A DNA stretch of 64,000 nucleotides from an uncultured candidatus Porisulfidus sp. (GTDB taxonomy: Bacteria; Pseudomonadota; Gammaproteobacteria; Poriferisulfidales; Poriferisulfidaceae), in NCBI GenBank assembly GCA_965242985.1, contig OZ251520.1:1683227-1747226 (forward strand), read 5' to 3'. Of this stretch, positions 23,633 to 64,000 are shown in pieces. The translations under genes and the position numbers were made by a program. The first letter of the stretch is position 1, and each line of letters starts with the position of its first letter. The notes under the pieces are model-generated. The model ran no database searches. It was not told where the DNA came from and saw only the letters and a program-made list of their open reading frames with translations.

Positions 23633-23656
23633 GGCCTTTTCCCTATATTGTTATTG

Positions 23657-36058: not shown

Positions 36059-36231
36059 GCACCCTTACCTGCAGATGGGGCCAACCTAGCGTTGGCGACT
36101 AGTCCCGCGCACGCCGGCGCGGCGAGCATCCCTAGCATCAGGACCGTGGCCGGCCAGTCCCGCCGCGGACGACAACTCGACCAAGCGCCAATCGCCTGCG
36201 GCCCCGTCCGCCGCACCGCGCCGCCGCCCCC

Positions 36232-37686
36232 TCAGAACAACCGCCGCAGCCCGACCTCGACCCGGCTCCGCTTGTACCGGAAGCGCTCGGCGTTGGACTT
36301 CCGCTCCTCCCGCACCAGCGCCAGCTCCGGCGTGAAGTCCCCCAGCTCCAGCGTGCGGTTCAGCAGCGACAGGCGCAGGATCCCCAGCCGGTCGCGCCGC
36401 CGAAACGGCCCGTCGATGATGTTCACGTTGTCCGAGTAGCGGTGGTGCCGGTCGTACGACAGGCCGGCGACGAAGCCCCCCGCGCCGAACACCGGCGGCA
36501 GCGCGTAGTCGGCGCCGACCCCGCCCCACCAGCTGTCGTAGCGCTGGCGCGGATCCTCGGTGTGGAAGCGCCGCCAGCCGCCGCGCCCGTGCACCGTCAG
36601 CGCCGGCGTGGCGATGTGCGCGGCGCGGGCGGTGGCGTCCAGCCGCGGCCCGTCGAAGCGCCGCTGGCGGCGGTGGTGCAGCCGCATCCGCTCCAGCGAC
36701 GCCCCCCACCAGGTGCGCTCGCCCAGCCAGCCGTCCGCCTCCAGCCGCAGGCCGCGGCCGCTGCTGTAGGTCTTGCCGCCGTACCAGCTGCGGTTGACCT
36801 TGGCCAGCGCGCTCACGCTGCGCAGCCCGCGGTCGGCGAACTCGAAGCGCGGGCCGGCGTGCAGCGACAGCGTCATGTCGTCGAAGGCGCTCCCGCCGTA
36901 GTCGCGCCGGTACAGCCCGCCGCCGGCGCGCAGCCGCGTCCGCGAGCGCTCGTGCAGCCGGAGGTCCAGCGGCCGCTGGTATTCCGCCGCGGCCGACAGC
37001 AGCAGCCCCACCCCGGAGGTCTGGCGCGCCTCCTTGCTGAGCGTGATGCCCTCGCCCCCGGGCAGCTGGATGCCGGTGGCCACCGTGCGCGCCTCGGTGG
37101 CGGTGTTCACGTTGCTGTCCGGCGCCACCGCCACGTGGAAGCTGCGGCGGATGCGCCGCCGCTCCCGCAGCAGGTGCAGGAACAGCCGGATCTGCCGCAC
37201 CACCGCCGGCGGGTGCTCCTCCGCCAGGATGCGCCGGTAGTGCCGCTCCGAGGCGTCGCAGTCGTCGCCCAGCAGGTGCGCCCACAGGTCCTCGGGCGGG
37301 CGGGCGCAGTCGCCGCGCTGGAACAGCGCGTGCGCCAGGTACAGGTGCGCGTCGGCCCGCGCCGGGCGCCGGCGCTGCACGTGCGCGAACGCCCGCGCCG
37401 CCTCGCCGTACAGGTTCTTGCGCAGCTCCCCGCTCCAGGGCGCGCCGCCCGGGGCCCGCTCCCGCTGCGCGGCCTCGAGCAGCGCCACGCCGAGGCGGAA
37501 AATCGCGTCCAGCCCCTCCGGGCGCTGCGCCAGCTGCTCGCGCAGCACGATCACCATCGCCGCCACCTCCGCCTCGCTCGCGGCGCGCGGCGCGGAGCCG
37601 GCCGGCTCCGCCGCGCCGGCGGCGGCGGCCTGCAGCAAGAGCGCCGCGGCCAAGGCCGCGGCGCCGCGCGTCGGGCGGGCAAGCAT
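36232..37686 (-). CDS. Slam-like outer-membrane protein (signal peptide, TPR-like N-domain, DUF560-like barrel ending RRLF)
   Basis: Start MLARPTRGAAALAAALLLQAAAAG signal peptide; paralog of 3765..5285; adjacent to a lipoprotein gene. Confidence 0.65.
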   Translation of the reverse strand: MLARPTRGAAALAAALLLQAAAAGAAEPAGSAPRAASEAEVAAMVIVLREQLAQRPEGLDAIFRLGVALLEAAQRERAPGGAPWSGELRKNLYGEAARAFAHVQRRRPARADAHLYLAHALFQRGDCARPPEDLWAHLLGDDCDASERHYRRILAEEHPPAVVRQIRLFLHLLRERRRIRRSFHVAVAPDSNVNTATEARTVATGIQLPGGEGITLSKEARQTSGVGLLLSAAAEYQRPLDLRLHERSRTRLRAGGGLYRRDYGGSAFDDMTLSLHAGPRFEFADRGLRSVSALAKVNRSWYGGKTYSSGRGLRLEADGWLGERTWWGASLERMRLHHRRQRRFDGPRLDATARAAHIATPALTVHGRGGWRRFHTEDPRQRYDSWWGGVGADYALPPVFGAGGFVAGLSYDRHHRYSDNVNIIDGPFRRRDRLGILRLSLLNRTLELGDFTPELALVREERKSNAERFRYKRSRVEVGLRRLF

Positions 37687-37781: not shown

Positions 37782-40457
37782 TCAGTTGCTGTCGGCCGGC
37801 GGGGCCTCCCGCACCGCGCCGAAAGCGCCGAACAGCATCGCGCCTTCCGCGACGCCGTTGTTGCCCGCGCCGCTGGTGCCGGTGCCGACCACCTCGAACG
37901 TGCCGCCGACTTCCTTGTGCGCGGCGTCGCCCGTGCCGTAGAACATGCCGTCGAGCACGGTGCCGGTCAGCTCCGGAGAGTCGCCGGCGGTCATGCCCAC
38001 GTGGCGGAAAGTGCCGGTGTCGGTCAGGGCCATTTCCTCGAACTTGAAGCCGCGCCCGGTGCCGTCGGTGGCGTCGCCTTCGACGCCCAGAGTAGTGACC
38101 GCGGCCCCGTTGTGCGGAGTCACGAAGCTGTCGAACGTCACGTCCACCTCTGTGTCGGCGAAATCGACCTCCACGGTCGCGTCGGCACGCCAGACCTCGG
38201 CCTCGCCGGCCGAGGCGGTGCTCATGGCGAGCGCCTCGCCGTTCCAGGTCGCGGTGCCGGTCCCGGTGGGCGCGGTCCCGCTCGGCACGCCCATCGACGC
38301 CGCGCCGTACAGCGCGTCCTGCTGCCACAGCGTGGGGTTGTCGTCGAAACGGAGCCCGGCCAAGGTGAAGGCTTTCACGTTGGCGGTCGTCGCGGAGATC
38401 TGCGTGACTGCGAACATGCTGTGTTCCATCCAGCCCAGATATCGGACGAAGTTGACTACCGCGCCGCCGCCCTGCTCATGATCGGGAGGGTTAGAGAAAT
38501 CGCCGCCGCTGGCCGCATGAGAATAATCCGTGACATCATTATTGAGCCCCTCCGCGGAGATGTAATAGTTCTCTCTCGTCAGCTGCACGACGCGGTCGGC
38601 CTCGTTGGCTTCGGTGGAGGGGTCGTCGACGGCGGGCGGCGAACTGATATCCATGAAGCCGACATCGTTGTCGGTGAAGCCCGGCGCGATGCCCAGGAAC
38701 GCGAACTCCCCGGCGGGCGCGGTGACGGGCGCGGCCGCGCCGCGCGTGCCCCGGTTCGCCAAGTCGCGGAACGCGGCCAGCGTCGGCTTGATGCTGCGCC
38801 AGAACACCCGTCCCATGCGCTCCGCCAGCGTGTCGCCCTCATCCTGGTATTCCGGGGCGATCGACGTGAACAGCTTGTTCAGCCGGTTGCCGGTGGTCGC
38901 CTGGTACGTGCCGAGGTTGGCGCTTTCGGCGCCGACCGCGACCGTGCTCCGCTCGGGATCCAGCGTGATGCAGTCGTTGTCGCAGCTCTCGAAGTTCTCC
39001 GTCAAGCGGCCCTGCAGGGTCAGCGTGGCGTTCGAGTCCGACGCGCCGACTCCCGTGATGTCGACTTCCGTTTCGTTGACGTTCAACGCGCTCGTTCTCA
39101 TCTTCAGGTACCGGATGCCCATCGTGCGCAGGCCCTCTTGCTCCAGCACGGCCTTGGGCCCGCTGCGCAGGCCGGCAAGCCGGTTGGCGTTGTAACTATG
39201 GCCCCAATGACGGACGGACGAGGAGCCGGCGGTCCCGGCCTCGTACTCTCCCGCAATGTCGGTGGTGACCGAAGCCCGATTCGTATTCGTGCCGCCGATG
39301 TTGTCCGCAATCAAGACTTTGCTTTGCGCGACGACATCCGGATCCGTGCCCTCGTCGTCGCCGTCGGGCATCGTCCGCGAGATGGACGTCCGCGTCAGCG
39401 TCGCGTCGGCCATATACGCCGCCGCGTCGTAGGTGTGCGTGACGGTCATCCCGCCCCCTGCGTCCACCTCCCGGGTGACGCTGGAAACGTCGCCGTCCGC
39501 GTCGTACTTGACCAGCAGATTGCCGGAGGAAACCATCAGCACCTGGGTCCGGACGCCGTCCGCGTTGTAGGAGGTGATCGTCGTAACCGCCTGCGTGCCC
39601 GCGCCCATCGAGTCTTCGCTGTACGAATACCTGGTCACCACCCGGGTCCGGTCGGCGCCCTCGGTGGTGATCACGGTCATCATGGTCACCCGGTGGTGCA
39701 TCGTGTCGTCGTCGGTGTCGTCCGCCGTGCCCTGATTGGCCGTGTGCACCTCGTAGACGTACTCCGTCTTGCTCATCTGGTTGCCGTCCGCGTCGAACTC
39801 GAACACCGTCATCGGATCCGTCGTGAGCATCGCGGCCACCGCATTGTCGCCGGAACCCTGCGGCGGACGCGTGTAGTAGTCGGTCCGCATGCTGGTCATG
39901 TCGGCCCGGGTCAGCACCATCCGCGTGACCATGGAGATGGCCAGCGCGCCGCCCGGGGCGGAGGCGGTGCCCGCCGTCCGCGTGATCGTGCCGGTGCGCA
40001 CCGTCGTGGTGCCGCCCGTGATCGCCACGGTCTCGGTGCCCGCGCCCGTCATGTCGTCCGCGTCGATCATCGCGCCTTCGCCGAACATCACGGTCGTGGT
40101 CGTGTCGCCCATCACCGTCACGATCCGCATCACGTCGGCGATGCTGTACGTGGGATCGGCGTCGGCGTCCGCGCCCGCGGTCTCGGTCACGGTGCCGTGG
40201 TACGTCACCATCCGGGTCACCTCGCCGTCCGTCGTCGTCCGCACGACCAGCGTGCCGGCCGCGCCGCCCATCGCGGTGCAATCGCCGCCCGCGCCGCACA
40301 TGTACATCGAGGTGGACATCACCACCGGCTCGGTCGGCTCCGGCGCCGGGGCCGGCGCCGCCGCGCCGCCGCCGCTGCCGCCGCCGCTGCAGGATGCCAG
40401 CAGGCCGGCCGCCAGCAACGCGGCCGCCGTCTTCAGTTCGGAACGGGAAATGCTCAT
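37782..40457 (-). CDS. Large surface lipoprotein (lipobox LLASC) with C-terminal TbpB/fHbp-like 8-strand barrel; candidate Slam-dependent surface lipoprotein
   Basis: Start MSISRSELKTAAALLAAGLLASC preceded by GAGAGGA; C-terminal GTFEVVG...AMLFGAFGA barrel-like motifs; immediately upstream of the Slam gene. Confidence 0.6.
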   Translation of the reverse strand: MSISRSELKTAAALLAAGLLASCSGGGSGGGAAAPAPAPEPTEPVVMSTSMYMCGAGGDCTAMGGAAGTLVVRTTTDGEVTRMVTYHGTVTETAGADADADPTYSIADVMRIVTVMGDTTTTVMFGEGAMIDADDMTGAGTETVAITGGTTTVRTGTITRTAGTASAPGGALAISMVTRMVLTRADMTSMRTDYYTRPPQGSGDNAVAAMLTTDPMTVFEFDADGNQMSKTEYVYEVHTANQGTADDTDDDTMHHRVTMMTVITTEGADRTRVVTRYSYSEDSMGAGTQAVTTITSYNADGVRTQVLMVSSGNLLVKYDADGDVSSVTREVDAGGGMTVTHTYDAAAYMADATLTRTSISRTMPDGDDEGTDPDVVAQSKVLIADNIGGTNTNRASVTTDIAGEYEAGTAGSSSVRHWGHSYNANRLAGLRSGPKAVLEQEGLRTMGIRYLKMRTSALNVNETEVDITGVGASDSNATLTLQGRLTENFESCDNDCITLDPERSTVAVGAESANLGTYQATTGNRLNKLFTSIAPEYQDEGDTLAERMGRVFWRSIKPTLAAFRDLANRGTRGAAAPVTAPAGEFAFLGIAPGFTDNDVGFMDISSPPAVDDPSTEANEADRVVQLTRENYYISAEGLNNDVTDYSHAASGGDFSNPPDHEQGGGAVVNFVRYLGWMEHSMFAVTQISATTANVKAFTLAGLRFDDNPTLWQQDALYGAASMGVPSGTAPTGTGTATWNGEALAMSTASAGEAEVWRADATVEVDFADTEVDVTFDSFVTPHNGAAVTTLGVEGDATDGTGRGFKFEEMALTDTGTFRHVGMTAGDSPELTGTVLDGMFYGTGDAAHKEVGGTFEVVGTGTSGAGNNGVAEGAMLFGAFGAVREAPPADSN

Positions 40458-40600
40458 GGGAATGATCCTCTCGGTTGGGGTTGGGAGTGGAAAAAAGTGA
40501 TTCGGTGGCGTCTTCCGGGGCCGTCGCCGCGGCCTCCCGGGCGGCCGCCCGCCGCCGGCGCGCAACCATGCCCCCGCCTCTCCGGGCGGGTCGGCGCGGG

Positions 40601-40860: not shown

Positions 40861-41688
40861 CTACTCCGGCACCGCGAACGTCAGCCGCCGCGCCAGGCGC
40901 AGCAGCTCGCGCAGGCTCCCCACCGCCGCGTGCGGGCGGTGCGGGTGGCGCGCGGTGCCGGGGAACATCCGGTCCAGCCGCTCCCGCTCCCAGCCGGCGC
41001 CGTTGTAGAACACCGCCGTCGCCCCGGCGCGCCGGGCGGCGGCCACGTCGGCGGCGCTGTCGCCCACGCACCAGCAGTGCGGGTCCGCCGGCAGGCCGAG
41101 CGCCGCGGCCGCGGCCCGCACCGGCGCCGGGTCCGGCTTGCGCCGCGGCGCGTCGTCGCCGCACACCAGCGCGTCGAAGCAGCCGCGCAGGTCGGCCGCC
41201 GGCGAGGCCCGCGCCAGCGCCGCCAGCTCGCGCCGCACGAACGCCCGGTTGCGGTTGCTGAGCAGGCCCAGCTTCGCGCCCATCGCCCGCAGCGCCGCGA
41301 GCGCGCGCGGCGCGTCCGGCTCCAGCAGCTCGACCGGCCCCGGCGGCGCCGCCCGGTAGGCGGCGTCGAAGGCGCGGTGGGCGAGGTCCTTCGCTTCGCC
41401 GTCGTCGCCGAACAGCAGCTCGAACAGGTCGGTGCGCGAGATCTTGCGCGCCGCCCGCGCCCGCGGGTGCAGCCGGCCGTGCGCGCGCACGTGGCGCAGC
41501 AGCTTGGCCTCCTCCAGGGTGCGGCTGGCGGCGACCGGCGCCAGCCGCCCGCGCAGGCCGAGCTCCGCCAGCCGCGGCAGCACCTCGTCGACCGCGCGGT
41601 ACATCGCGTCGTGGGTGTCGACCAGCGTCGCGTGCCAGTCGAACAGGATCGCGCGCGGCGCGGCCTGCGGGTGCTCAGCCGCCGCCAT
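40861..41688 (-). CDS. HAD-superfamily hydrolase (phosphatase-like)
   Basis: ILFDWHATLVDT motif I and VGDSAADVAAARRAG motif IV. Confidence 0.55.
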   Translation of the reverse strand: MAAAEHPQAAPRAILFDWHATLVDTHDAMYRAVDEVLPRLAELGLRGRLAPVAASRTLEEAKLLRHVRAHGRLHPRARAARKISRTDLFELLFGDDGEAKDLAHRAFDAAYRAAPPGPVELLEPDAPRALAALRAMGAKLGLLSNRNRAFVRRELAALARASPAADLRGCFDALVCGDDAPRRKPDPAPVRAAAAALGLPADPHCWCVGDSAADVAAARRAGATAVFYNGAGWERERLDRMFPGTARHPHRPHAAVGSLRELLRLARRLTFAVPE

Positions 41689-42691
41689 CGAGCGCCGCGC
41701 TCTCCAGCTCCAGCCGCAGGTCGGCGCGGCACAGCGCGCTGTGCACGAAGCGCCGCGGCGCGGCCGCGCCCAGCGCGCGGTCGAGCGCCGCGCGCGCCGC
41801 CGGCAGGTCGGCCGGGTCCGCCAGGTAGACCTTCTGGAACGGCAGGTCCTGCGCCCGCTCGGGGCCCGCGAGCCCGGCCAGGCGCGCCTGCGCCACCACC
41901 GCCGCGTGGTTGCGCAGCGCCTCGCGCGCCTGCGCCGCCGCGTCGCCCGGGTGGCGGGTGGCGCAGCCGACGATGCTGGCGGTGCCGGACAGGAACAGCG
42001 CGCGCGACGCGCCGTCGGCGTGCCAGGCGCCGCGGCTGAACGACGGCCCGTGCGGGCCGAGCGCGGCCGGGTAGTCCGGCGGCGGCGTCTGCCGGGGGTT
42101 GTCCAGCGCGCGCGGCGCGCGCGCCGCGGTCAGGGCCAGCAGCGCGAGGCCCGGCGCGGCGCTGCCGGTGGTGGTCGCCGCCGGCAGCGGCGCCGCGAGC
42201 GCGGCCTCGTCCTCGGTCATCGCCCGCCGCCGCCCGGCGCAGAACGCCTGGTAGCGCCCGTCCCGGGCCAGCGCCGGCAGGTGGCACCACACCCGCAGCA
42301 GCCGCGGGCAGCCCTGCGCGCGCGCCAGCGCGAGCAGCTCCGCGCAGGCCCGGTAGCTGGCCGCCCGCAGGTCGTCCGCTTCGTCGAACACCGCCCAAGC
42401 GAACAGCCGCCCGCCGCAGCGCACCCAGCGGAACGCCCCGGCCGCGCCGCGCCCGCCGATGCGGTCGCTGGACCAGACCTCCGCGAACGGCTTGCCGTCG
42501 AGCGGCGGGAGCGCCAGCTCCAGCCCAGCATCGGTCGCCCGCTGCCGCGCGGCGCCGTAGGCGACGCGCAGCAGCACCTCCTCCGCCGGCGGCGCGACGG
42601 AGTCCGGGAGGAACGCGAGGCGCAGGGAACGGGGGCCGGTGTGCATGGCGTCGGGCTGCCGGCGCGCCCGCTGGGATGCGCGGCGGCGCAT
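41675..42691 (-). CDS. Hypothetical enzyme (possibly FkbO/Hyg5-chorismatase/RidA-like), 5' end duplicated at 45341..45540
   Basis: 338-aa high-GC ORF; N-terminal 55 aa has a diverged second copy 2.7 kb away. Confidence 0.3.
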   Translation of the reverse strand: MRRRASQRARRQPDAMHTGPRSLRLAFLPDSVAPPAEEVLLRVAYGAARQRATDAGLELALPPLDGKPFAEVWSSDRIGGRGAAGAFRWVRCGGRLFAWAVFDEADDLRAASYRACAELLALARAQGCPRLLRVWCHLPALARDGRYQAFCAGRRRAMTEDEAALAAPLPAATTTGSAAPGLALLALTAARAPRALDNPRQTPPPDYPAALGPHGPSFSRGAWHADGASRALFLSGTASIVGCATRHPGDAAAQAREALRNHAAVVAQARLAGLAGPERAQDLPFQKVYLADPADLPAARAALDRALGAAAPRRFVHSALCRADLRLELESAALDGGG

Positions 42692-42725
42692 CCGAATGAT
42701 AAAGGATGGCCAGCCGGCTGCGGCG

Positions 42726-43766
42726 TCACTCGCGGCCTAGGACTCTATTAATGCTGCCGATCCCGTGCGCGCGCAGTTTTTCCGGCTTGTTGAAGTTCGG
42801 GGGGTGTTCCGCATAGACCACGCCCACCAAGCTGCATCGGGACAGGTCATCGCCTTGTCTCTTGTACACCTCCCAAATTCCTCCACCGCTCATACCGCCC
42901 CAAGATGTCGGATCCTCATGCAGTATTTTTTCCACCGCCGGATCCTGCGCTGCCTCCCCCCAATCAGACTGTCCTGTCTTTGGGCGGCCGTACAACTCTA
43001 GAGTGTAGTCGAAACGATCCCACCCGTCTTCCGACTCCAATGCAGGACCTTCGCGGAATACTTGCCTCTCCATTGCACATAGCGTTAACTTTTTTCTTTC
43101 TTCTGCCAGCAACTTCTTACTTTTCTCGTGTACTCGGCCGCATGCCCACAAGCTTGCCTGTTGGCGGCCCTGCTTACGCATTTCTTCGGTACGTGTTTCC
43201 TCTGATTGCCGCCAGTTGTGAAAAATGCCCCCATGTCTTTCGAGTTTGCGCGCATCTTCCTCCGTGATCCGCATCCAAGCGATATCCGGACCTTTCAACT
43301 GCACGTCCATCGGATCATCATGACTTGCGTCCAAGCCCTCCGACAACGGCATGATTTCCCCTTGCAGCGATATCGGAAGATAACCTTGCGAACCGAACGT
43401 TGCCAGCTTCCGCCTTTGGGCGATTGTCATCTCTGCCAACTTCCGCTCTTTGGCAATTGTCATCTTGACTTCTTCGCCTTGGGCTTCTTCGCCTTGCCGC
43501 TGTTCCTCGACTAGATGCCCCGCGACATGCCCAGCCGTCAGTATCCCCGGGTCGTCCCCATTTCGCACAAGCACGCCTGTCCCGACCTGAATCTTGAGCA
43601 TATCCTCCAAGCTTCGCACTTCTTCTCCATCTGTCCATTTGCTGATGAGCACGGTCTGGGCTCGCAATTTCCGTGCCACCCGCTGATTTTCTTCTTCACC
43701 CAAGGCTACCCCGACGTCATCCGCGAGACGGTCTCGGTCCGAGAGGTTGTTGGCCAAGCGATTCAT
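42726..43766 (-). CDS. Cytoplasmic trypsin-like (S1) serine protease
   Basis: LTAGHVAGH (His), GMSGGGIW (Ser) motifs; no signal peptide; low GC. Confidence 0.5.
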   Translation of the reverse strand: MNRLANNLSDRDRLADDVGVALGEEENQRVARKLRAQTVLISKWTDGEEVRSLEDMLKIQVGTGVLVRNGDDPGILTAGHVAGHLVEEQRQGEEAQGEEVKMTIAKERKLAEMTIAQRRKLATFGSQGYLPISLQGEIMPLSEGLDASHDDPMDVQLKGPDIAWMRITEEDARKLERHGGIFHNWRQSEETRTEEMRKQGRQQASLWACGRVHEKSKKLLAEERKKLTLCAMERQVFREGPALESEDGWDRFDYTLELYGRPKTGQSDWGEAAQDPAVEKILHEDPTSWGGMSGGGIWEVYKRQGDDLSRCSLVGVVYAEHPPNFNKPEKLRAHGIGSINRVLGRE

Positions 43767-43897
43767 CTTGGCCTCCTAAGCGGAAATGTTAGTCGTGAAA
43801 GTGCGGGTTCCCTGCCTGCCATTCGTCCAGACGCGGGATCACCGCAAACTTCAGTATGGACACCGCAGGTTGGTGAACACACAAACGCCATGACAAA

Positions 43898-44242
43898 CTA
43901 CCGGTACTGCTCGTTCAACCGGGGACCGTACGACTGCCCCAGCTCTTTCTCGATGCCTTTCCGCTCGTATTCCTTGTCCACTTCCAGAACATGGACATGG
44001 CTGACCCCTAGCCGCACCGCTTCCCGCCACTTGTCGTGCGCGGGAATCCTATCGGCGAAACTCTCCGTCTCCCCGATGTAGAGGGGGATATATCGCCAGG
44101 AAGACTCCTGCAAAAGAGCGAAAATGTATACGCCGCCCGTTTCGGGCACTTTTCCCCAATCGACGTCGCGGTCATAAACTCGGAACTGGTAGTCCAGCCA
44201 CATGCAGGTCCGGTCCAGGGTTCGGTCGGTGTAGGTCATCAT
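43898..44242 (-). CDS. GIY-YIG nuclease-domain protein (114 aa)
   Basis: GGVYIFAL...YIGETES...R...H motif. Confidence 0.55.
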   Translation of the reverse strand: MMTYTDRTLDRTCMWLDYQFRVYDRDVDWGKVPETGGVYIFALLQESSWRYIPLYIGETESFADRIPAHDKWREAVRLGVSHVHVLEVDKEYERKGIEKELGQSYGPRLNEQYR

Positions 44243-44343
44243 GGGCCTCTTCGTGCAGTGTCAACCATAGCATTCAGCCTGTCCCCCGCTATGCGGACGA
44301 TCGGGCATTTGCAGAATCGGGCGAACCATACGCGAGCCCGGCA

Positions 44344-44712
44344 TCAGCCGTTCGTCTGCACGCGTTGCACGTACGCCGTGACCACGCTGGTGATGGCCCC
44401 GCTGAAAAGGAAAATCCTGAGCCCGGGAAGCTCGTCTTCCGCCAACCACCTCATGCCGACCGGAGCCAAATGGTGCAATGCGACCACCACTACGACGACG
44501 GCCATGGCCGCGATCACCACGATCATCAACGAGTGCATGCCCCAAGACAAAATGGCGCGGCCCCGCTCATCGCGGCGATGCTTGCTGATCTTCTCCTGAG
44601 CCTCAATAGCGTAACCGCGGCGATACGCGCCTTTTTCGTCCTCGGCGTCAACCGGCTCGCTGCCCAGCTCATCCAGCGCTTCGGGCTCCAGAACGCGCCG
44701 TTGCCCCGTCAT
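44344..44712 (-). CDS. Small membrane protein, candidate toxin (PanT) partner of Panacea antitoxin
   Basis: Start MTGQRR overlaps the PanA stop (ATGA); hydrophobic IVVIAAMAVVVVVVAL segment. Confidence 0.4.
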   Translation of the reverse strand: MTGQRRVLEPEALDELGSEPVDAEDEKGAYRRGYAIEAQEKISKHRRDERGRAILSWGMHSLMIVVIAAMAVVVVVVALHHLAPVGMRWLAEDELPGLRIFLFSGAITSVVTAYVQRVQTNG

Positions 44713-45239
44713 GCGGCCTCCGCCAGTTTGGCGGCGGCCACTTTTGCGGCATAGTGCTCCATGATCAAGTTGTTCGGGATGACCGAGTTCTTCCCGCGCA
44801 AGCTCCACACCGTATGCCACGGCGTGTTTTCCGCATGCGTGAGCCGGGACAATTCCACGCCGCTCAGGTGGCTGTACTTCTGGTACACCTGCTGGAGCAG
44901 GTCGCTTTCAATGTCGTCGAAAACTTCCGTTTCCGGAGCGTAGATTTTCTCCGTGACAGGCTCCCCCCGGTACTTTCTCACTCCGCGATACACTTCCGCC
45001 ACCACCGGGCCGTAGCGCCACGCCAGAACATCGTGCCGGATCAGGGGCTTCCGATAAAGGCCCAGCATCCACCCGTGGGACAGGTAGACCAGTTTGACCA
45101 CCTGCAACGGGGTCAACGGGTTGTCGCTCTCGATGCCTTTTGCAACGATATCGTTTGCGACAGAACGCGAGTCACGCATAATTGAGGTCCTCCTTGCGGT
45201 CGATGCAGTAGTTCGGTTCCGGCAACTGATGGTTGCCAT
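44709..45239 (-). CDS. Panacea (DUF4065) domain antitoxin-like protein
   Basis: QVVKLVYLSHGWMLG, WRYGPVVAEVY, TPWHTVW signature; 176 aa. Confidence 0.65.
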   Translation of the reverse strand: MATISCRNRTTASTARRTSIMRDSRSVANDIVAKGIESDNPLTPLQVVKLVYLSHGWMLGLYRKPLIRHDVLAWRYGPVVAEVYRGVRKYRGEPVTEKIYAPETEVFDDIESDLLQQVYQKYSHLSGVELSRLTHAENTPWHTVWSLRGKNSVIPNNLIMEHYAAKVAAAKLAEAA

Positions 45240-45340
45240 GTCAACGACCGTTGACGACCATTGTAATCCACCCGCCCCCTCCCCCAGTCAAGCGGCGCTA
45301 TGTGCCGGACCTTTTCCGGCCCTTGCCGCCGCCTTACATG

Positions 45341-45540
45341 ATCTCCGCCGCAAAACCCGCTGCCGAGCGGCGGGAGCGCCAGCTCCAGCCCGGCATCGGT
45401 CGCCTGCTGCCGCGCGCCGCCGTAGGCGACGTGCAGCAGCGTCTCGTCCGCCGGCGGCGCGGGGGAGCCCGGGAGGAAAGTGAGGCGCAGGGAGCGGGGG
45501 CCGGTGTGCACGGTTCGGATTTCCTGTGGAACGAGGTCCA
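45341..45540. repeat. ~150-bp segment ~90% identical to the 5' end of gene 41675..42691 (42481..42660)
   Basis: gagcggcgggagcgccagctccagccc...ggcgcagggaNcgggggccggtgtgca shared. Confidence 0.6.
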
Positions 45541-45789
45541 CGGAGCTCGCGGAAAGCAACGTGTCCGCCCGCGGTACGCGGCAACACACTATAATATGTC
45601 AAAGTAATGCGGGACAACCTCCGAGAGGTTCCCGAAAACGCGCCGAGAGCGTGCAACTTTACGAAGAGGGATCGAGGACTTCACTAGGCTTCCGGTCAAT
45701 TGGCTTCTGCGGACCGGGTTGACCTCCCCGTTGAAACCTCATCAAACGCTGACTTGCCCGTACCCGTAAATCCTGCACGAAGTACTGCC

Positions 45790-48700
45790 ATGCCTAGAAA
45801 ACAACCACCGGTAGAGCACTTGACTCCACATTTCAACTTGCTCCAAGAAGAGTACTTGTTAATACAGGCATGGAAAAAGACCGTATCGTATATACGCCAA
45901 TATAATTGGTACGTGGATACCCTGCAACTCGATAGAGCTGCAATTAACCTGCGCTCGTTCATTTCGCGAATTCAGCGGCGCATACAAAAGCCAGAGTGGC
46001 AAAATCATAGGTTGCGGATCGTGCTGGCTCCCAAAAGCCAAACTTGGGAGACATCATCCAAATCTGCTCTTCCTTGGCATCCCGCAAATAAATCTGAACC
46101 AGACGAACCTACAATGCGCCTGCGGCCGCTCGCACACGTGGATATTGAAGAACAAGTTGTGGCAACCGCGCTGATGCTGTGTCTCGCTGATCGAGTCGAA
46201 ACAAAGCAAGGAGATCCGCGAGACGAAATCCAGGACGAGATCTCGAGGAAAAAAGTACTTTCATATGGCAACCGCCTGTTTTGTGACCGCAGCGACAACG
46301 AATTGCACCATCGATGGGGGACAACCAAATTATATCGAGCCTACTACCAAGACTATAGGAAGTTTCTTGCTCGTCCAGATGCTGTTGTGAAACCTCATGG
46401 GAAACAAAAGAATTTCCGGAATCGAAATATCTTCGTCGTTCATTCTGACCTTAAAGAGTTTTACGATAGGGTGCGACCTCGCCATCTTGCTGATGCCCTG
46501 CTACACCTTAAAGAAAATGCCGATGAGCAGCCATTCTTTGACTTTGCGAAGCGCGTTCTGAACTGGACTTGGAACTCCCGCGACAAAAAACAAAGCACTT
46601 TCTATGCCACTCAGGCGGGAATTGAAGACTTCGACCATGTGGCCCTCCCGCAAGGCCTAGTCTCCGCCGGCTTTTTTGCAAACATCATGCTTCTTGAGTT
46701 CGACAAAAAACTGCAAGAAACAATCGGGAAAAATATCACAAAAGATAGCAGCCTTCGTTTAGAAGATGCTTGCAGGTACGTTGACGACCTGCGAATAACC
46801 ATGACCAGTCCCCGCACAGATAATTCTGTAGATGTGGCGGATGTAAAAGACAAAACCTTGGCATGGCTACAACAACTGTTGATAGACACCGCGCCCGAAC
46901 TGGAGATCTCTATAGATAAGACTGAGATCCGCCAAGTAGATCAAGCCGATAATCCTTTGATCAATCAAAGCGCCAAGATGAATCGCATTCAAAAGGCGGT
47001 ATCTGGTGGATTTGATGCGGTCGGCGGAACCGAAATACTGGACTTGATCCAAGGCTTGATGCGGTCCCAAGAAGCATTGCATCGAAAAGAATGCGAAACC
47101 ATTTGGCCATTTTCTCCACTGACCGATGTCCAGAAAGGAACCGTCGCTAGATTCACAGCGGGCCGCTACCGGACCACATACAGATCCGTCAGGCCCCTGC
47201 TTGACGATACACAGCAGTCTAAGGAAATCAATGATGCCGACTTTCCTACAAAATCAGGTGCTGACTATCTTGGTCTCATCACACAACGCGAGCTTGATGA
47301 AGACATGCGTGTTTTTGCGCTTGGCCTTATTGAGCGATGGGTGGCCGATCCATCGAACGTAAGGTTGCTACGCATTGGGCTGGATCTCCGACCTGATGCC
47401 AAAATACTGCAGAAAATACTGGACATGATTCGCCCGCTGATCCATAAGCGAGGTCCGCAACGTTCCGTTGCATTGTATTGCCTAGCGGAACTGTTTCAGG
47501 CTGGAGCCACAGAAACTGGATGGGTAGAAGATAATGAATCTCTACCTGATGACGTCAAAGTCAAGCAATATCGGAAAATTCTGCGGGAGGAAGCAACTAG
47601 GCTAGTAGAACCAAAGACTGCTCTTATTCCTTGGTATCTCCGGCAACAAGCACTGCTATACCTCGCCGTCTGTTCTCCTGAAGAAGCGGTGCCAATCCCC
47701 CGGACAACTCAGAATGAAACCAAGCACTACTACAGAATGATCGAGTTTTTGCAGTCCGGAAATATTAATCAACCCATATCGGTGTCGGAGTTTGCGAACT
47801 TAGCGGTACTGGCCCATCGTTCATTCCCAAAAAGAAGAACAGTTACGGCCAAAGCAATTCGCCAACAACTAACACCCGCTCGAGCCGAGGCTATCGCTGC
47901 GCGAGATCTTTCGTTCGCTTACGACCTTGTCACACAGGAAACCCGCCCTTTTAATGTGACGCATCTGTCTACACACATCAAAGAAGATCTCTGTCTTGAA
48001 GAAAGTACAATTCCCGAGAATGGAATGCAGAGTCTTGCAAGTATCGTGTTGGAGAATAAACATGACCTAAACGTCTTTCAGAACGAACTGGCGGTGTTGC
48101 GCTTCGCGGAAAAATTCCTTGAGCAACTGTCGCAAATGTCTCCTCGACCTCTAGCTATCACCCCTAGGAACGTGTGGGTTGAAGTTAAGGCCCCGCACGC
48201 GCAAATTGCCAAAATCAGGCGAGTGAAAATCTTTCCCGACGTAACACCCCACTCCAACTCTCTCTATAGCCCTCCCAACTGGTGTGCTGAAAATGATCGT
48301 TGGCGTTTCAATCTTGGATTCCTAATCCGCTTTATACTCACGGGGCAACCGGATTTTACTCGTCGCGTATTTCCATCAGTTCACTGGAAAGAAGATACCT
48401 CCACATACCGGAAAGCGGAAAGCCACTGGTATCAGCGACTTCACGGATTATACAACGGTCAACAAGCATTCGGCGGAGACTGGGTCCCCGTGACGGACTG
48501 GGTGGAACAGTTTGTGCTGGCCCTCCTGCGTTGGCCTGGCTGTTACTTGCCCAAGACTTTTGAATTTGCCAGCAATGGGCTTGAGCCAACTAGGATGGCA
48601 ATTAAAACAAGAATCGGAGTGCTTAACAATGCTATGGGCCATGTCTCTGGAACACAACTACTCCCAGTTAACGCGCAACCTAAGCGGCTTAGCACAAAAA

Positions 48701-49599
48701 ACACCCTGCGAATCTGCGTTGTGCAGACCGCCATCCCAAAAGTCCGAGATTTCGAGAAGTGCGGTCTCTCACTATCCACGCCTTTGATCCGCAAAAAGCA
48801 TCGCAGACATCTTTCCGCTGCCCTCACCGCTGTCAAAAGCATTATGCATCTCCGAAACACTCACATGGAATGTGGCGGAGAATTGGATTGGCTGATTTTG
48901 CCCGAACTTGCGGTTCATCCGAAAGATGTAACGACTCACCTGATGCCATTTGCACGTGCCTATAAAGCGTTAATACTCGCAGGATTGACATATGAAAAAC
49001 TGCCACGCGGCCCATACCAAAACTCCGCGATATGGATTCTCCCCGAATGGTCCGAATCTTCCGAACTGCGGATTCGAACACGCAGGCAGGGGAAACAGCA
49101 CCTTTCTCCGGTCGAGAAGAAATTTAATGACGGCCGGGAACGTGTCCAAGGTTTTCGGCCCTGCCAATGGCTAGTGCGTTACCCTTGGTCAGCAGAGGAA
49201 AACAGCCAGCCTCTGATGCTGACCGGTTCCATTTGTTACGACGCAACCGATTTGGAAATCATCACCGCCCTCCGGAATCAATCGGATGTCTTGGCTATAC
49301 CATCCCTGAATCCGGATGTGCGAACGTTTGACCAGATGGCTCAAGCCCTGCATTACCACATGTTCCAGCTCGTTATCGTAGCCAATAACGGCCAGTACGG
49401 AGGAAGCAACGCATATTGGCCCGCCAAGGGAATCAAGAAGCAAATTTTTCATGTGCACGGGCAGCCGCAAGCCTCCATCACTTTTTTTGAAATCGACAAT
49501 ATCGAAGATTTTCAAAAGCGAACTCTCCCAAGCGATGAGCGCCAGAAATATCCTCTAGCAGGATCAAGATGGAAATATCCTCCAGCAGGCTTAGGCTAG
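45790..49599 (+). CDS. Reverse transcriptase fused to C-terminal nitrilase/CN-hydrolase domain (DRT type 1 / UG1-like defense RT)
   Basis: RT motifs (FVVHSDLKEFYDRV; ALPQGLVSAGFFANIML; YVDD) and nitrilase-like LRICVVQT...ILPE...GSICYD; ~1270 aa. Confidence 0.65.
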   Translation: MPRKQPPVEHLTPHFNLLQEEYLLIQAWKKTVSYIRQYNWYVDTLQLDRAAINLRSFISRIQRRIQKPEWQNHRLRIVLAPKSQTWETSSKSALPWHPANKSEPDEPTMRLRPLAHVDIEEQVVATALMLCLADRVETKQGDPRDEIQDEISRKKVLSYGNRLFCDRSDNELHHRWGTTKLYRAYYQDYRKFLARPDAVVKPHGKQKNFRNRNIFVVHSDLKEFYDRVRPRHLADALLHLKENADEQPFFDFAKRVLNWTWNSRDKKQSTFYATQAGIEDFDHVALPQGLVSAGFFANIMLLEFDKKLQETIGKNITKDSSLRLEDACRYVDDLRITMTSPRTDNSVDVADVKDKTLAWLQQLLIDTAPELEISIDKTEIRQVDQADNPLINQSAKMNRIQKAVSGGFDAVGGTEILDLIQGLMRSQEALHRKECETIWPFSPLTDVQKGTVARFTAGRYRTTYRSVRPLLDDTQQSKEINDADFPTKSGADYLGLITQRELDEDMRVFALGLIERWVADPSNVRLLRIGLDLRPDAKILQKILDMIRPLIHKRGPQRSVALYCLAELFQAGATETGWVEDNESLPDDVKVKQYRKILREEATRLVEPKTALIPWYLRQQALLYLAVCSPEEAVPIPRTTQNETKHYYRMIEFLQSGNINQPISVSEFANLAVLAHRSFPKRRTVTAKAIRQQLTPARAEAIAARDLSFAYDLVTQETRPFNVTHLSTHIKEDLCLEESTIPENGMQSLASIVLENKHDLNVFQNELAVLRFAEKFLEQLSQMSPRPLAITPRNVWVEVKAPHAQIAKIRRVKIFPDVTPHSNSLYSPPNWCAENDRWRFNLGFLIRFILTGQPDFTRRVFPSVHWKEDTSTYRKAESHWYQRLHGLYNGQQAFGGDWVPVTDWVEQFVLALLRWPGCYLPKTFEFASNGLEPTRMAIKTRIGVLNNAMGHVSGTQLLPVNAQPKRLSTKNTLRICVVQTAIPKVRDFEKCGLSLSTPLIRKKHRRHLSAALTAVKSIMHLRNTHMECGGELDWLILPELAVHPKDVTTHLMPFARAYKALILAGLTYEKLPRGPYQNSAIWILPEWSESSELRIRTRRQGKQHLSPVEKKFNDGRERVQGFRPCQWLVRYPWSAEENSQPLMLTGSICYDATDLEIITALRNQSDVLAIPSLNPDVRTFDQMAQALHYHMFQLVIVANNGQYGGSNAYWPAKGIKKQIFHVHGQPQASITFFEIDNIEDFQKRTLPSDERQKYPLAGSRWKYPPAGLG

Positions 49600-50190: not shown

Positions 50191-50664
50191 TTAAAACTTC
50201 CAGCCCTCCTCCCGCATGAATTCCTCCAAGTCCATGCAGACAATTTTGTACTCGTCGCAGATGTTTGGAATCCGGGCGCTGTCCGGCCGTCGTTTCTCGG
50301 TGGTCACCACGGTCCGGCGCTCAGTTTTCGCCTTGGCGATCACGAACGGATCCGCGCAAGGACCGCCTTCCAGCCGCTTTTTCTGCTGGACGAGCTGTTG
50401 AAAATGCGGATGACCGGAAAAAATCTTCGCCACGAATTCCATCTCTTCCGCCCGCGGTTCGGGAAACACTCCGGCCCTATGCCGCTTGGCCCAGGCCAAC
50501 GCGTCGTCCGCAACCTGCTCCAACTCCTTGAACACTTCCCGCGTCGATACGGTCCTTTCGTCCCTCACCGCGCGGTCGAACTGTTCCCAGAAGCTCGGAA
50601 ACTGATCGCGGTAGTAGTGCCGGAAAGTATCGATAAACACCCCCGTGTCGAACACATACTTCAT
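50191..50664 (-). CDS. DUF4411 (PIN-like) protein, typical partner of HTH-ImmA regulators
   Basis: 157-aa ORF, start overlaps ImmA stop (ATGA); N-terminal acidic PIN-like residues. Confidence 0.5.
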   Translation of the reverse strand: MKYVFDTGVFIDTFRHYYRDQFPSFWEQFDRAVRDERTVSTREVFKELEQVADDALAWAKRHRAGVFPEPRAEEMEFVAKIFSGHPHFQQLVQQKKRLEGGPCADPFVIAKAKTERRTVVTTEKRRPDSARIPNICDEYKIVCMDLEEFMREEGWKF

Positions 50665-51638
50665 GCCGGCCGACCCAAGCTGCGCAGGAACACCTCCTCG
50701 AAACGCCCGAGGTTGGCCACCTTAACTCCGATGTAGTCGGACAGCTGGTCGACGGTGATGCGCCCGCGCGCGTACCTGTGGAACGCAAGCTTCAGGAACG
50801 CGGCGCTCATGTAGGTGTTGTGGTTGAAATGCCAGTCGCCCCCGCCTCCGGTGGGGTTCCCAAACGACGCTTGGGCCCATTCCGCGACTTTCCGCTCATA
50901 GAGCGCTTGGCTGACGCGATCCGCATCGAGAAATCGGCGCAGGACGACTTCCCGGCTGACGCGGTAGCGCTCCGCCAGTCCTTCGACCCCGGCCTCGATA
51001 TCCGCCGCGTCCCACCGGGCGGTCTGCTCCCGGAAATCCCGGACGGGAACTAGCAGTTCGGCGGCGAACCGGTTGCAGGCCGCCTCCACGGCCCGGTCGC
51101 CCCGCGGCGGGCCGGCGGGAGAACGGGCATCGCGGAAGTCCACGCCGCCGGTTTCCTGCAGGATATGCGCCAGCTCGTGGAACAGCGTGAAGATCTGGCG
51201 GGATTTCGGCTGGTGGTTGTTGATGTAGATCAGCGGAAACGCCTCGTGGTGCAGGCAGAATCCGGAAATCTCGTCGTCTTGGAAATTGTCCTTGAAGACG
51301 AACACGCCGCAGTCCTCGACCCGCGCGCGCCAGCGCTTCAGCGCGGTCTCCATGTCCGGCCAGCGGCGTTGCTGGTCCAAGCCGACGCCCAGATGCCGCC
51401 GCGCTTCCGCCGCGGCCTCCGCCGGGGAGCGGCCCGCGCCGGCTTGCATCGCGCGCGACAGGAACCGCGCGCCGGAGCCGCGGCCGCCGGCGAGGTCGGC
51501 GATGCTGTACTGCAACGCTTTCGCGCGCCGCAGCAGATAGTGCATCCGGGGCGACAAGCCCGCGGCGATTTCCGGCGTCAGGCTCCGGAACGACTCCGCC
51601 GCCGCGGCCTCCTCCGGCGGCTCCGGAAAGAAAAACAC
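50661..51638 (-). CDS. ImmA/IrrE-family zinc metallopeptidase domain (HELAH), C-terminal part of a split HTH-ImmA gene
   Basis: FHELAHIL HEXXH motif; starts at a non-ATG codon in the conserved linker VFFFPEPP. Confidence 0.55.
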   Translation of the reverse strand: MFFFPEPPEEAAAAESFRSLTPEIAAGLSPRMHYLLRRAKALQYSIADLAGGRGSGARFLSRAMQAGAGRSPAEAAAEARRHLGVGLDQQRRWPDMETALKRWRARVEDCGVFVFKDNFQDDEISGFCLHHEAFPLIYINNHQPKSRQIFTLFHELAHILQETGGVDFRDARSPAGPPRGDRAVEAACNRFAAELLVPVRDFREQTARWDAADIEAGVEGLAERYRVSREVVLRRFLDADRVSQALYERKVAEWAQASFGNPTGGGGDWHFNHNTYMSAAFLKLAFHRYARGRITVDQLSDYIGVKVANLGRFEEVFLRSLGRPA

Positions 51639-57531: not shown

Positions 57532-58757
57532 GCGCCGCGCCCTCGCCGCTGCGCGCGCTGCTCGGCGCCGCCCTCGACCGGGTGCGCGGCGACGCCGCGG
57601 TCGCGGCCTGGCTGCGGGCCCATCCGGATGCCGCGTACGACCATCTGCTGGCCTTCGGCAAGGCGGCCGCGGCGATGGCCGACGGCGCGCTGGCGGCGCG
57701 CCCGGAGCCGGCCGCGGGCCTGGTCGTCACCAAGCACGGCCACCTCGCGGGGCGGCGCTGCGCCGGCCATCCGCGCCTGCGCTGCCTGGAGGCGGACCAC
57801 CCGGTGCCGGGGGCGGCCAGCCTCGCCGCGGGCGCGGCGCTGCTCGAATTCCTGGCGGCGGCGCCCGCCGACGCGCGCTTCTTAGTGTTGATCTCCGGCG
57901 GCGCCTCGAGCCTGGTCGAGGCGCTGGCGCCGGGGCTGGACTTGGCCGGGCTCAGCCGCCTCACCGACCGCCTGCTGGGCGCGGGAGTGCCGATCGACCA
58001 AATGAACGCGGCGCGGCGCGCGGTCTCGCGCCTCAAGGGCGGCCGGCTGGCGCGCCATCTGGACGGCCGGCCGGCCTGCGCGCTGCTGATCTCGGACGTG
58101 CCGGGCGACGCGCCGTGGGTGATCGGCTCCGGGCCGCTGTCGCCGGCGCCGGACGGCGGCGCGGCCGAACTGCCCGCGGCGGCGCGGGACCTGCTGGCGG
58201 GGATCGAGCCCGAGCCGGTTCCGCCGCCGGCGGCGTTCGCGAACATCGACGCGCATGTGATCGCCACGCTGGCGGACGCCAAGGCGGCGGCCGCCGCGGC
58301 CGCGGAAGCGCGCGGGCTGGCCGCGCACGTGCACGACGAGTTCCTGGACGGCGACGCCCAAGCCCGGGGAGCGCGCCTGGCGCGCTGGCTGCGCGGCGCC
58401 GAGGCCCCGCCCGGCTGCCACGTCTGGGGCGGCGAGACCACCGTGCGCCTGCCCGACGAACCCGGGCGCGGCGGCCGCAACCAGCACCTGGCGCTGGCCG
58501 CGGCGCGCGAGCTCGACGGCGCCGGGGGCGTCCGCCTGCTGGCCTGCGGCACCGACGGCACCGACGGCCCGACCGCCGACGCCGGCGGCGAGGTGGACGG
58601 CGCCACCCTGGCGCGGGGCCGCGCCCGCGGCCTGGACGCGGCCGCGGCGCTGGCCGCGGCCGACGCCGGCAATTATCTCGAAGCCGCGGGCGCGCTGGTC
58701 GCCACCGGCCCGACCGGCACCAACGTCATGGACCTGGTGCTGGCGCTCAAGGACTGA
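57528..58757 (+). CDS. Glycerate 2-kinase, MOFRL family (TtuD/GckA-like); GTG start overlapping upstream stop
   Basis: DUF4147 + MOFRL-type sequence (VTKHGH, LISGGASSL, GGETTV, LACGTDGTDGPT). Confidence 0.65.
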   Translation: MSAAPSPLRALLGAALDRVRGDAAVAAWLRAHPDAAYDHLLAFGKAAAAMADGALAARPEPAAGLVVTKHGHLAGRRCAGHPRLRCLEADHPVPGAASLAAGAALLEFLAAAPADARFLVLISGGASSLVEALAPGLDLAGLSRLTDRLLGAGVPIDQMNAARRAVSRLKGGRLARHLDGRPACALLISDVPGDAPWVIGSGPLSPAPDGGAAELPAAARDLLAGIEPEPVPPPAAFANIDAHVIATLADAKAAAAAAAEARGLAAHVHDEFLDGDAQARGARLARWLRGAEAPPGCHVWGGETTVRLPDEPGRGGRNQHLALAAARELDGAGGVRLLACGTDGTDGPTADAGGEVDGATLARGRARGLDAAAALAAADAGNYLEAAGALVATGPTGTNVMDLVLALKD

Positions 58758-58760
58758 GCC
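58693..58760 (+). repeat. Left copy of ~70-bp direct repeat = 3' end of glycerate kinase gene
   Basis: ggcgcgctggtcgccaccggcccgaccggcaccaacgtcatggacctggtgctggcgctcaaggactgagcc, duplicated at 63843..63912 with 1 mismatch. Confidence 0.85.
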
Positions 58761-58764
58761 AAAA

Positions 58765-59898: not shown

Positions 59899-59927
59899 AC
59901 ACATACAATCTTTGACAGGGGAACCTC

Positions 59928-60161
59928 ATGGATACAATTGCTTTGCTCAAGGACTCTGAAAGGAGGCAACTCGTCGAGGAAATGTGCGAAGAGGCCCACA
60001 TTCCATATCTTGTCTTATGCGAGTTGCTAACGGCTGCCCTAGAAACCCAAGGCAATTCCACAAGGCACAAATTAAATCAAAAGATCGAGCAAATCATAGA
60101 ACCCCAAGTCACGGCGGCACAGGAATTACCGGAAAACAACGGTAACGGTGCAGGCAAATGA
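59928..60161 (+). CDS. Small hypothetical protein (77 aa) between DndC-like and DndD-like genes
   Basis: Intact ORF with 4-nt overlap to downstream gene. Confidence 0.3.
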   Translation: MDTIALLKDSERRQLVEEMCEEAHIPYLVLCELLTAALETQGNSTRHKLNQKIEQIIEPQVTAAQELPENNGNGAGK

Positions 60162-62236: not shown

Positions 62237-62247
62237 GAGATGTCGCC

Positions 62248-63777: not shown

Positions 63778-63842
63778 ACAACAAAATCATCGTCCGCATT
63801 GACAGCGCGGTGGACTCCTCCAATTCCGCCAAGATCAAAATG

Positions 63843-63912
63843 CCGGCGCGCTGGTCGCCGCCGGCCCGACCGGCACCAACGTCATGGACCTGGTGCTGGC
63901 GCTCAAGGACTG
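63843..63912 (+). repeat. Right copy of ~70-bp direct repeat (glycerate kinase 3' end) closing the islet
   Basis: Near-identical to 58693..58760. Confidence 0.85.
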
Positions 63913-64000
63913 AGCCCGGCCGCCGACCGCGGGTGCAGGCCGCCGGCGTCCGCCGCCAGCCAGCCGCCCTGCTCGTACCAGTCGCCGAGCACCGCGCGCA

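Follow-up and report, generated by a model that had tools for sequence, protein, structure and literature searches.

Gene content and the repeated FkbO start

The DNA analysed was a stretch of 64,000 nucleotides (nt) from an uncultured candidatus Porisulfidus sp. (assembly GCA_965242985.1, contig OZ251520.1, positions 1,683,227 to 1,747,226 of the forward strand), which is called the window throughout and within which coordinates are counted from its first letter. The locus of interest lies between a FkbO/Hyg5-like core gene and a DRT1a defence gene and comprises a foreign-looking block of four genes (2.9 kb, the islet) between two direct copies of the FkbO gene start, designated copy A (in the intact gene) and copy B (standing alone). 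The features are listed in the order of the window with strand, length in amino acids (aa) or base pairs (bp) and guanine-cytosine (GC) content:

41675..42646, minus strand: FkbO/Hyg5-like core gene, intact, 323 aa, GC 0.81 (Pfam PF21168, E=1e-21)
42494..42648, minus strand: copy A, functional FkbO 5' end, islet-linked allele
42647..42725, minus strand: GC-rich spacer of 79 bp from the protease stop to the FkbO start, GC 0.76, with a hairpin at 42674-42693
42726..43766, minus strand: trypsin-like (His-Asp-Ser) protease-like protein, 346 aa, of an uncharacterised family (motifs of homologs; no signal peptide)
43898..44242, minus strand: stand-alone GIY-YIG-fold protein, 114 aa (AF2 and Foldseek)
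44344..44712, minus strand: PanT candidate, 122 aa (hydropathy, ATGA overlap with the panA stop)
44709..45239, minus strand: PanA antitoxin with Panacea/SocA-like domain (PF13274)
45240..45340, minus strand: panA upstream region with a promoter-like motif (TTGACT...TACAAT) and a small hairpin
45341..45513, minus strand: copy B, orphan and apparently dead FkbO 5' stub
45514..45789, no strand assigned: ancestral intergenic region separating the divergent genes DRT1 and FkbO (collinear with 8111-8394 of the comparison contig L025, see below)
45790..49599, plus strand: DRT1a (UG1 reverse transcriptase-nitrilase) defence gene (PADLOC Drt1a, 1220 bits, E=0)

The FkbO-like protein scored 158 bits against TIGR04444, which is under the cutoff of that model. 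The ATG at 42646 was taken as its true start because the protein collection records the 323-aa form. A repeat search of the window gave a 155-nt direct repeat (42494-42648 and 45359-45513) with 90% identity and a spacing of 2865 nt, and blastn of the window against itself returned the same pair (42499-42648 and 45364-45513, 150 nt, 90.7%, E=3e-56); in the alignment, weaker similarity reached out to about 42478/45341. A preliminary description of the locus had reported a duplication of ~150 bp and ~90% identity, which both searches confirmed, and had placed it at 42481-42660 and 45341-45520, near the alignment limits when the weaker similarity is included. The repeat contains a leader of ~7 nt and codons 1 to ~50-59 of the FkbO/Hyg5-like gene; the earlier assignment to the N-terminal 55 codons of a gene at 41675..42691 therefore holds for the FkbO 5' end, and the start is corrected to the ATG at 42646. 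As to whether the segment is a common genomic repeat, blastn within the 64-kb window returned no third copy of the FkbO start. The longest identical run between copies A and B was 28 nt (about 42501-42528, near the distal end of the repeat), a length that is expected by chance at 90% identity and is also compatible with a recombination core. At the islet no transposon or insertion sequence signature was found, that is, no framing terminal inverted repeats, no short target-site duplication and no transposase, and the repeat itself is 155 nt long and imperfect.

In copy B the ATG start is replaced by GTG. The copy is broken off at about codon 59 (about +176) and carries about 7 private substitutions, the ATG->GTG change among them; past about +176 it runs into DNA bearing the panA promoter-like motif. 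Because of the GTG start, the truncation and the private substitutions, copy B is, judged from its sequence, a dead FkbO start.

The GC content of 42726-45340 was 0.58 (0.55-0.63 for the four islet genes), compared with 0.81 for FkbO and 0.78 for copy B. The islet had been described as a low-GC segment ending at 45540; its low GC relative to FkbO was borne out, but low GC continued past 45540 up to about 54000 (DRT1, DUF4411/M78, pentapeptide protein), with GC-rich copy B as the sole interruption. Beyond copy B follow, in this order, DRT1a, a DUF4411 gene with an M78 ImmA/IrrE-like protein, and a pentapeptide-repeat protein. The view of an islet flanked by host DNA on both sides was abandoned, since copy B sits inside a larger defence island of ~11 kb. 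The window as a whole is a mosaic of core DNA with 75-83% GC and many islets with 47-60% GC, and other islets in it carry RloB/AAA_21, ThiF-type, Dnd-like, UvrD-PD-(D/E)XK and similar genes. The islet genes and 40 scanned, selected open reading frames (ORFs) of the window gave no Pfam/NCBIfam match to an integrase, recombinase or transposase. A tRNA or tmRNA gene as insertion target was considered and dropped, as the window has neither. A phage or plasmid origin of the islet was also rejected: phage, plasmid and viral collections gave no DNA match, viral contigs gave no relatives, and PanA was the only islet protein with a match in PHROG.

Haplotypes at the FkbO locus

Comparison loci were ENA and Logan metagenome contigs, reached via protein homologs or cluster members. 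Close relatives of FkbO were not found among GTDB species representatives or JGI metagenomes (best matches 42% and 36% identical, respectively), and no empty site was gained from them; in an exact record look-up of the window proteins, several were without an entry.

An empty site was provided by contig L025, in which the order is pentapeptide, M78, DUF4411, DRT1, 284 bp, FkbO, HAD and in which the islet is absent. The window aligned with L025 at 82% nt identity over 52178-45831 and at 97.6% over 42670-40854 (FkbO and the downstream HAD gene). Copy B was 94.8% identical to the FkbO start of L025, and the sequence upstream of copy B aligned with the DRT1-FkbO intergenic region of that contig. 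The panA upstream region (45240..45340) had no homology to FkbO or to L025 in the alignments, and at its upper end lies the illegitimate junction with copy B.

The islet side was represented by three further contigs. L026 is a contig of 2.3 kb that forms one block with 93.5% identity to window positions 44781-42514 and has the gene order PanA 3' end, PanT, GIY, protease, spacer, FkbO start. In L023, from the same sample as L025 (ERZ26050812), FkbO is directly preceded by the same spacer and a protease of 52% identity, and a DRT1-like gene lies farther upstream behind ISL3 fragments. In L027 a 47%-identical protease stands upstream of FkbO-HAD and is preceded by an AAA_15/21 ATPase, SIR2 and DUF87. 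The protease-spacer-FkbO junction was common to the window, L023, L026 and L027 in the alignments. A second FkbO stub was found in none of L025, L026, L023 and L027 (inspected 6-8 kb upstream in L023 and L027).

At the informative sites, GAGGAGGTG and the CCGTCG variant occurred in copy A and L026 only, GACGAGACG was common to copy B, L025, L023 and L027, and CGGC.GCGGG was found in copy B, L023 and L027. Pairwise identities over the 150-nt core were 90.0% (A and B), 94.7% (A and L025), 94.0% (B and L025) and 93.3% (B and L023). The spacer upstream of copy A aligned with L023, L026 and L027; collinearity extends from copy A to the protease side and from copy B to the DRT1 side. Sliding identity to L025 was 94-96% in the first ~200 nt of copy A and 98-99% from about 42500 downstream. 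Since the variants of A and B are split among different relatives, the repeat is neither an in-place duplication nor a target-site duplication, and A and B are the FkbO starts of two hotspot haplotypes that are now in one genome. The islet had been proposed to be an insertion that duplicated or recombined with its target; it is an insertion relative to the L025 empty site, and recombination is retained, but a fresh duplication is not, the copies being different alleles.

Taken together, the locus is probably the junction of two alternative defence-hotspot haplotypes, joined by homology-anchored and illegitimate host recombination (homology-facilitated illegitimate recombination, HFIR). Upstream of the core gene FkbO, this very GC-rich lineage has several such haplotypes. 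Haplotype 1 is that of L025 (pentapeptide-M78/DUF4411-DRT1-(~280 bp)-FkbO), and haplotype 2 is that of L026 (PanA-PanT-GIY-protease-(79 bp)-FkbO), of which L023 and L027 share the protease-FkbO portion. The window holds both head to tail: copy B is cut ~176 nt into the gene and fused to panA-upstream DNA, and copy A continues into the working FkbO gene.

Recurring scars and the proposed route of joining

Duplicated gene ends were also found around other islets. A DUF4147/MOFRL (glycerate-kinase-like) gene has its final 75 nt and stop codon duplicated with 97% identity (58686-58760 and 63842-63916), and the low-GC islet between these copies (58761-63841) contains a PAPS_reduct/DndC-like gene, an AAA_23 ATPase and a DndE-DUF87 fusion; here the scar is at the 3' end of the gene. 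In L023, 198 nt of the SlipAM (Slam) 3' end are repeated with 88% identity (14449-14646 and 16485-16682) around a 2-kb DUF6978-DUF1828 islet, and at the corresponding place in the window (36216-36419) the SlipAM 3' end is present as a single copy. A more degenerate direct repeat of 121 nt with 73.5% identity lies at 15033-15152 and 20416-20536 of the window; its upstream copy comprises the promoter and 5' end of a multi-ubiquitin-like gene, the first gene of a DUF6791-ThiF islet, whereas the second copy survives only as a frameshifted remnant close upstream of a SLOG-cluster2 gene, and the pair resembles a scar left when a cassette was replaced. No two of these scars agree in target or repeat length, which argues for general recombination and not for one site-specific enzyme.

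In the route proposed for the present locus, DNA from a related strain would have entered with a long homologous arm on one side and would have been closed by a non-homologous join (FkbO +176 to panA upstream) on the other. Three versions can be formulated. In version 1, DRT1-haplotype DNA with a long left arm, ending in a short FkbO stub, would have entered an islet-bearing genome; in version 2, islet DNA would have entered an L025-like genome with its anchor in FkbO; in version 3, a circular intermediate would have integrated by a single (Campbell-type) crossover in the FkbO start. All three versions, HFIR in one or the other direction as well as the Campbell-type crossover, were compatible with the sliding identities and with the informative sites. 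The efficiency of recombination drops steeply with short and divergent homology. With its ~175 nt and 10% divergence, the stub would have been too short and too dissimilar to support a second homologous crossover, so that the DRT1 block would have been added beside the resident islet instead of replacing it. Version 1 is slightly favoured because it would explain why the stubs are short (a longer arm would recombine without a scar) and why copy B is as divergent as the DRT1 block linked to it. What results is a build-up of defence genes rather than the transfer of a self-mobile element.

Several points weigh against this interpretation. The comparison loci are metagenome assemblies throughout. 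The native donor sequence upstream of panA and any microhomology at the junction are out of view, as L026 begins inside panA. The lower identity of the first ~200 nt of copy A to L025 fits a crossover just past the repeat and hence versions 2 and 3, although under version 1 older mosaicism could account for it. Three or four scars of like kind suggest a systematic process, possibly other than rare illegitimate recombination, and, the scan having covered selected ORFs, an integrase may act in trans from elsewhere in the 1.9-Mb contig.

In one alternative the islet is an integrase-mediated or cis-mobilisable (CIME-like) decayed element with its att site in the FkbO 5' end, carrying a replacement gene start and served by a recombinase encoded elsewhere, so that A and B would be attR and attL. 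A gene end duplicated on both sides of an island is what such elements classically leave, the 28-nt identical run near the distal end of the repeat could be the crossover core, the mosaic (A L026-like, then L025-like; B L025-like, then L023-like) fits the single crossover of a circle, and similar stubs border other islets. We nevertheless regard this origin as unlikely, given that neither the islet nor the 40 scanned window ORFs contain an integrase or recombinase, that L023 and L027 carry protease-FkbO without a second stub within 6-8 kb upstream, that phage, plasmid and viral collections hold no similar DNA, and that the other scars involve different genes and lengths (75 and 198 nt), which no single site-specific enzyme fits. 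An assembly chimera of two co-existing strain haplotypes was judged very improbable: a misjoin would be expected in shared sequence and would yield either haplotype, whereas the junction at about 45341 joins non-homologous DNA; moreover, copy B has private changes including the lost ATG, and both the window and L023 have analogous, independent scars. Strain mixtures are real all the same, as L023 and L025 are alternative haplotypes that both come from ERZ26050812, and the window contig itself is probably metagenome-derived.

Homing-like spread, in which the GIY-YIG nuclease of the islet would cut the empty allele near the FkbO start, repair would copy the islet in and imprecise repair would leave the stub, could draw on the full set of catalytic-type residues in the islet's GIY-YIG-fold gene, on the selfish-gene-like occurrence of GIY homologs in tandem or dispersed in other islands, and on the 98-99% identity of GIY and PanT between the window and L026 when the protease is only 88% identical. 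GIY-YIG homing enzymes such as I-TevI and the Seg proteins require a DNA-binding domain, for which 114 aa leave no space; in addition, the islets at the other scars are without any GIY-YIG gene, and a duplication is not normally left by homing, so that little credence can be given to this mechanism. If the FkbO start had been duplicated locally in tandem and the copies had diverged, with the islet inserted between them later, this would account for two copies that are direct and alike in length. Such a duplication would not account for the fact that most differences between A and B are shared with relatives (A with L026; B with L025, L023 and L027) and are not private, or for the collinearity of each copy with a different haplotype, and was considered extremely improbable.

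Beyond the joining of haplotypes by HFIR, one may speculate, with considerable doubt, that stub-flanked islets are integrase-less cassettes that move by homology alone, each carrying a short decoy copy of the target core-gene end; they would exit as a circle via the stubs and re-enter by a single crossover, here perhaps aided by cutting of the empty allele by the islet GIY-YIG nuclease. If this were true, stub-flanked islets would be a distinct class of RecA-dependent mobile defence cassettes and a general route to core defence hotspots.

Islet genes, surroundings and known systems

PanA was identified by its Panacea domain (PF13274 SocA_Panacea, E=7.4e-18, 66 bits at a cutoff of 25.7), with 85.6 bits to NF047745 (under the equivalog cutoff) and a match to phrog_1281 (E=2e-35). 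The start of the PanT candidate was placed at the ATG overlapping the panA stop (ATGA), which gives 122 aa and a co-oriented two-gene arrangement; hydropathy indicated a charged N-terminal half and a strong C-terminal transmembrane segment, and the family libraries gave no match. The panA-panT pair is conserved in L026, where PanT is 99% identical. The PanT/PanA call of the preliminary description is upheld on these grounds, the domain for PanA and the ATGA overlap with the transmembrane segment for the PanT candidate. Membrane PanT toxins with a charged N-terminus and a C-terminal transmembrane region were validated by Kurata et al. (PMC8832971); the islet resembles the systems of that study in its Panacea domain, its overlapping bicistron and the membrane-PanT build of its PanT candidate, and differs in that the sequence of the candidate has no library family. 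Elsewhere in the window, at 13445-13858 (minus strand), another PanA-like (Panacea) gene was present, with 42% identity to the islet PanA; it adjoins the gene of a Schlafen/AlbA_2-HATPase_c_4 protein (12129-13355).

For the 114-aa protein, an AF2 model (pLDDT 83) gave the UvrC GIY-YIG domain 1yd6 as top Foldseek match (probability 0.99-1.00, TM-score 0.50-0.71, though with E only about 0.01), and Y39, Y55, R65, H69, E98 and N110 were invariant in 11 sequences. Pfam/NCBIfam returned nothing at E<=0.01, and PADLOC a weak match to PDC-S14 (2.6e-4). The family is tiny, with 9 homologs among 5.8 billion proteins. Fold prediction and invariant catalytic-type residues agree with the original naming of a GIY-YIG gene. 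Shared with stand-alone GIY-YIG (URI) proteins and the N-terminal nuclease domain of UvrC are the predicted fold and the typical spacing of Tyr, Tyr, Arg, His, Glu and Asn; the differences are the missing Pfam GIY-YIG match, an additional beta-hairpin at the N-terminus that bears conserved Cys and Trp residues, and the missing DNA-binding domain.

The 346-aa protein has 23 close homologs, in which H80 (GILTAGHV) and D161 (PDIAW) are invariant and S293 (GxSGxGIW) is near-invariant. No match was obtained in Pfam, PADLOC or PHROG; the AF2 model was poor (pLDDT 48.6), Foldseek gave non-significant hits to HtrA, MucD and protein C, and a PDB profile search reached an S1 protease at E=0.37. A profile search gave 505 distant relatives, and 5/10 of those tested matched Trypsin_2 below threshold. 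A trypsin-like nature is a reasonable but unproven assignment: the order His-Asp-Ser in conserved motifs supports the first description of the gene as trypsin-like, and the library, PDB and fold matches are all sub-threshold. With PA-clan (Trypsin_2/S1) peptidases the protein shares the canonical order of the His, Asp and Ser motifs, and its distant relatives touch Trypsin_2; it differs from them in a ~130-residue insert from Asp to Ser, the lack of a significant match, the poor model, an apparently cytoplasmic location and the defence-island context. Between the window and L026 the protease is 88% identical at aa level, compared with 98-99% for GIY and PanT; over the window, L026, L023 and L027 its divergence is concentrated in the N-terminal half, and the C-terminal half tracks the divergence of FkbO.

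The protease adjoins FkbO in four genomes, and GIY is found beside it only in the window and L026, that is, in the same islet. Over the seven protease loci surveyed, L023, L024 and L027 had no small GIY gene beside the protease, L028 and L029 had only a distant GIY-YIG-clan (T5orf172) gene on the opposite strand, and in L032 protease and GIY were 5 kb apart, with a Bub operon and an AAA ATPase between them; GIY homologs in L030, L031 and L032 follow AAA_15/21 ATPases, sometimes as two copies, without an adjacent protease. A pairing of protease and GIY-YIG nuclease, as originally suggested, is therefore not conserved (adjacency in one islet only), and the two are independent modules. The four islet genes are three independent modules, namely a PanA/PanT toxin-antitoxin pair with a candidate membrane-type toxin, a solitary GIY-YIG nuclease-like protein and a solitary, fast-evolving serine-protease-like protein.

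In L032 (2-820 and 934-5442; see also L030 3-2563) a protease homolog stands directly upstream of the Bub operon (Multi_ubiq / Prok-E2_E / JAB-ThiF / BubE), which is followed by an AAA_15/21 ATPase and two small GIY-YIG-like genes; the protease-Bub-ATPase-GIY arrangement may be a larger, recurring island architecture. Membership of the protease in the Bub operon, suggested by L032, was considered and rejected, since the Bub-associated serine protease in the literature is BubE/DUF6527, a different protein.

DRT1a matched PDLC03745 over its full length (residues 40-1297 to model positions 5-1175 of 1176, nitrilase part included), and a promoter scan of the intergenic region 45514..45789 gave a promoter-like site at 45617-45588 that points at copy B. 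At 50191-51638 (minus strand) the M78 gene (ImmA/IrrE-like; CapP-like in PADLOC) overlaps the DUF4411 gene; the two are kept beside DRT1 in L025 and are a probable toxin-antitoxin or regulator pair.

Downstream of FkbO, the HAD-family phosphatase gene (40861-41688, GC 0.80, core-like) is present in the window, L025 and L027 and cleanly missing in L023 (about 10027-10050), a presence/absence polymorphism of a core-looking gene. Downstream of FkbO-HAD, a large protein is encoded beside Slam (window 37782-40565, minus strand; L025 10536-13748; L027 9204-12980; 927, 1070 and 1258 aa); it is wholly different among the window, L025 and L027 (TbpB-like in L027), yet 96% conserved between the window and L023, and its gene marks a second variable site, on the opposite flank of FkbO. 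Genes for DUF3326 and an Orn/DAP decarboxylase lie divergent and directly beside FkbO in L030 and L031 (L030 5866-8763), and in the window (22289-25012) 17 kb from FkbO and on the same strand; this difference in placement implies that the FkbO-Slam block was inverted or rearranged between lineages.

The orphan core-gene stub, copy B, is a readable footprint of haplotype joining, in which defence genes were added and not replaced and no element-encoded recombinase was found. As stubs recur (at the Dnd-like islet, in L023 and possibly, more diverged, a third time in the window), such scars could be mined for the order and direction of acquisitions. Two families are flagged as candidates for functional tests, the uncharacterised, fast-evolving serine-protease-like proteins and the very rare mini GIY-YIG proteins, both of which occurred only in defence-island contexts among the loci examined.

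Integrative islands that target gene ends (attL/attR) share with the locus the gene-end direct repeats around foreign DNA and the intact gene; the locus differs from them in that an integrase was not detected, copy B lines up with another island haplotype instead of host flank, and the 10% divergence extends along the whole repeat. Core defence hotspots that show no obvious mobile-element signature, cDHS1 of Pseudomonas aeruginosa being one, have been described (PMC10250203), and gain and loss of content in hotspots without mobile-element genes is a stated open question of that study. The locus is alike in its variable low-GC defence content between core genes, for which exchange via flanking homology has been proposed; such flank-mediated exchange is expected to be scarless (PMC10250203), whereas here a scar is present, content was added and not replaced, the core DNA has 75-83% GC and the islets measure 2-11 kb. 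HFIR has been proposed as a model for orphan arrays at type VI secretion system (T6SS), Rhs and contact-dependent inhibition (CDI) loci (PMC5361080). With the T6SS effector-immunity arrays of V. cholerae and the Rhs/CDI orphan toxins of that model (PMC5361080) the locus shares an anchor in a conserved flank and an illegitimate other end, an old module that is kept and shifted, fragments of the conserved or adjacent gene as scars, and copies that are allelic and not in-place duplicates; it differs in that the modules are anti-phage and toxin-antitoxin genes, the scar comes from the 5' end of a metabolic core gene and HFIR is deduced. The locus is thus neither a new kind of mobile element nor a new protease-nuclease system, but a new example of known phenomena.

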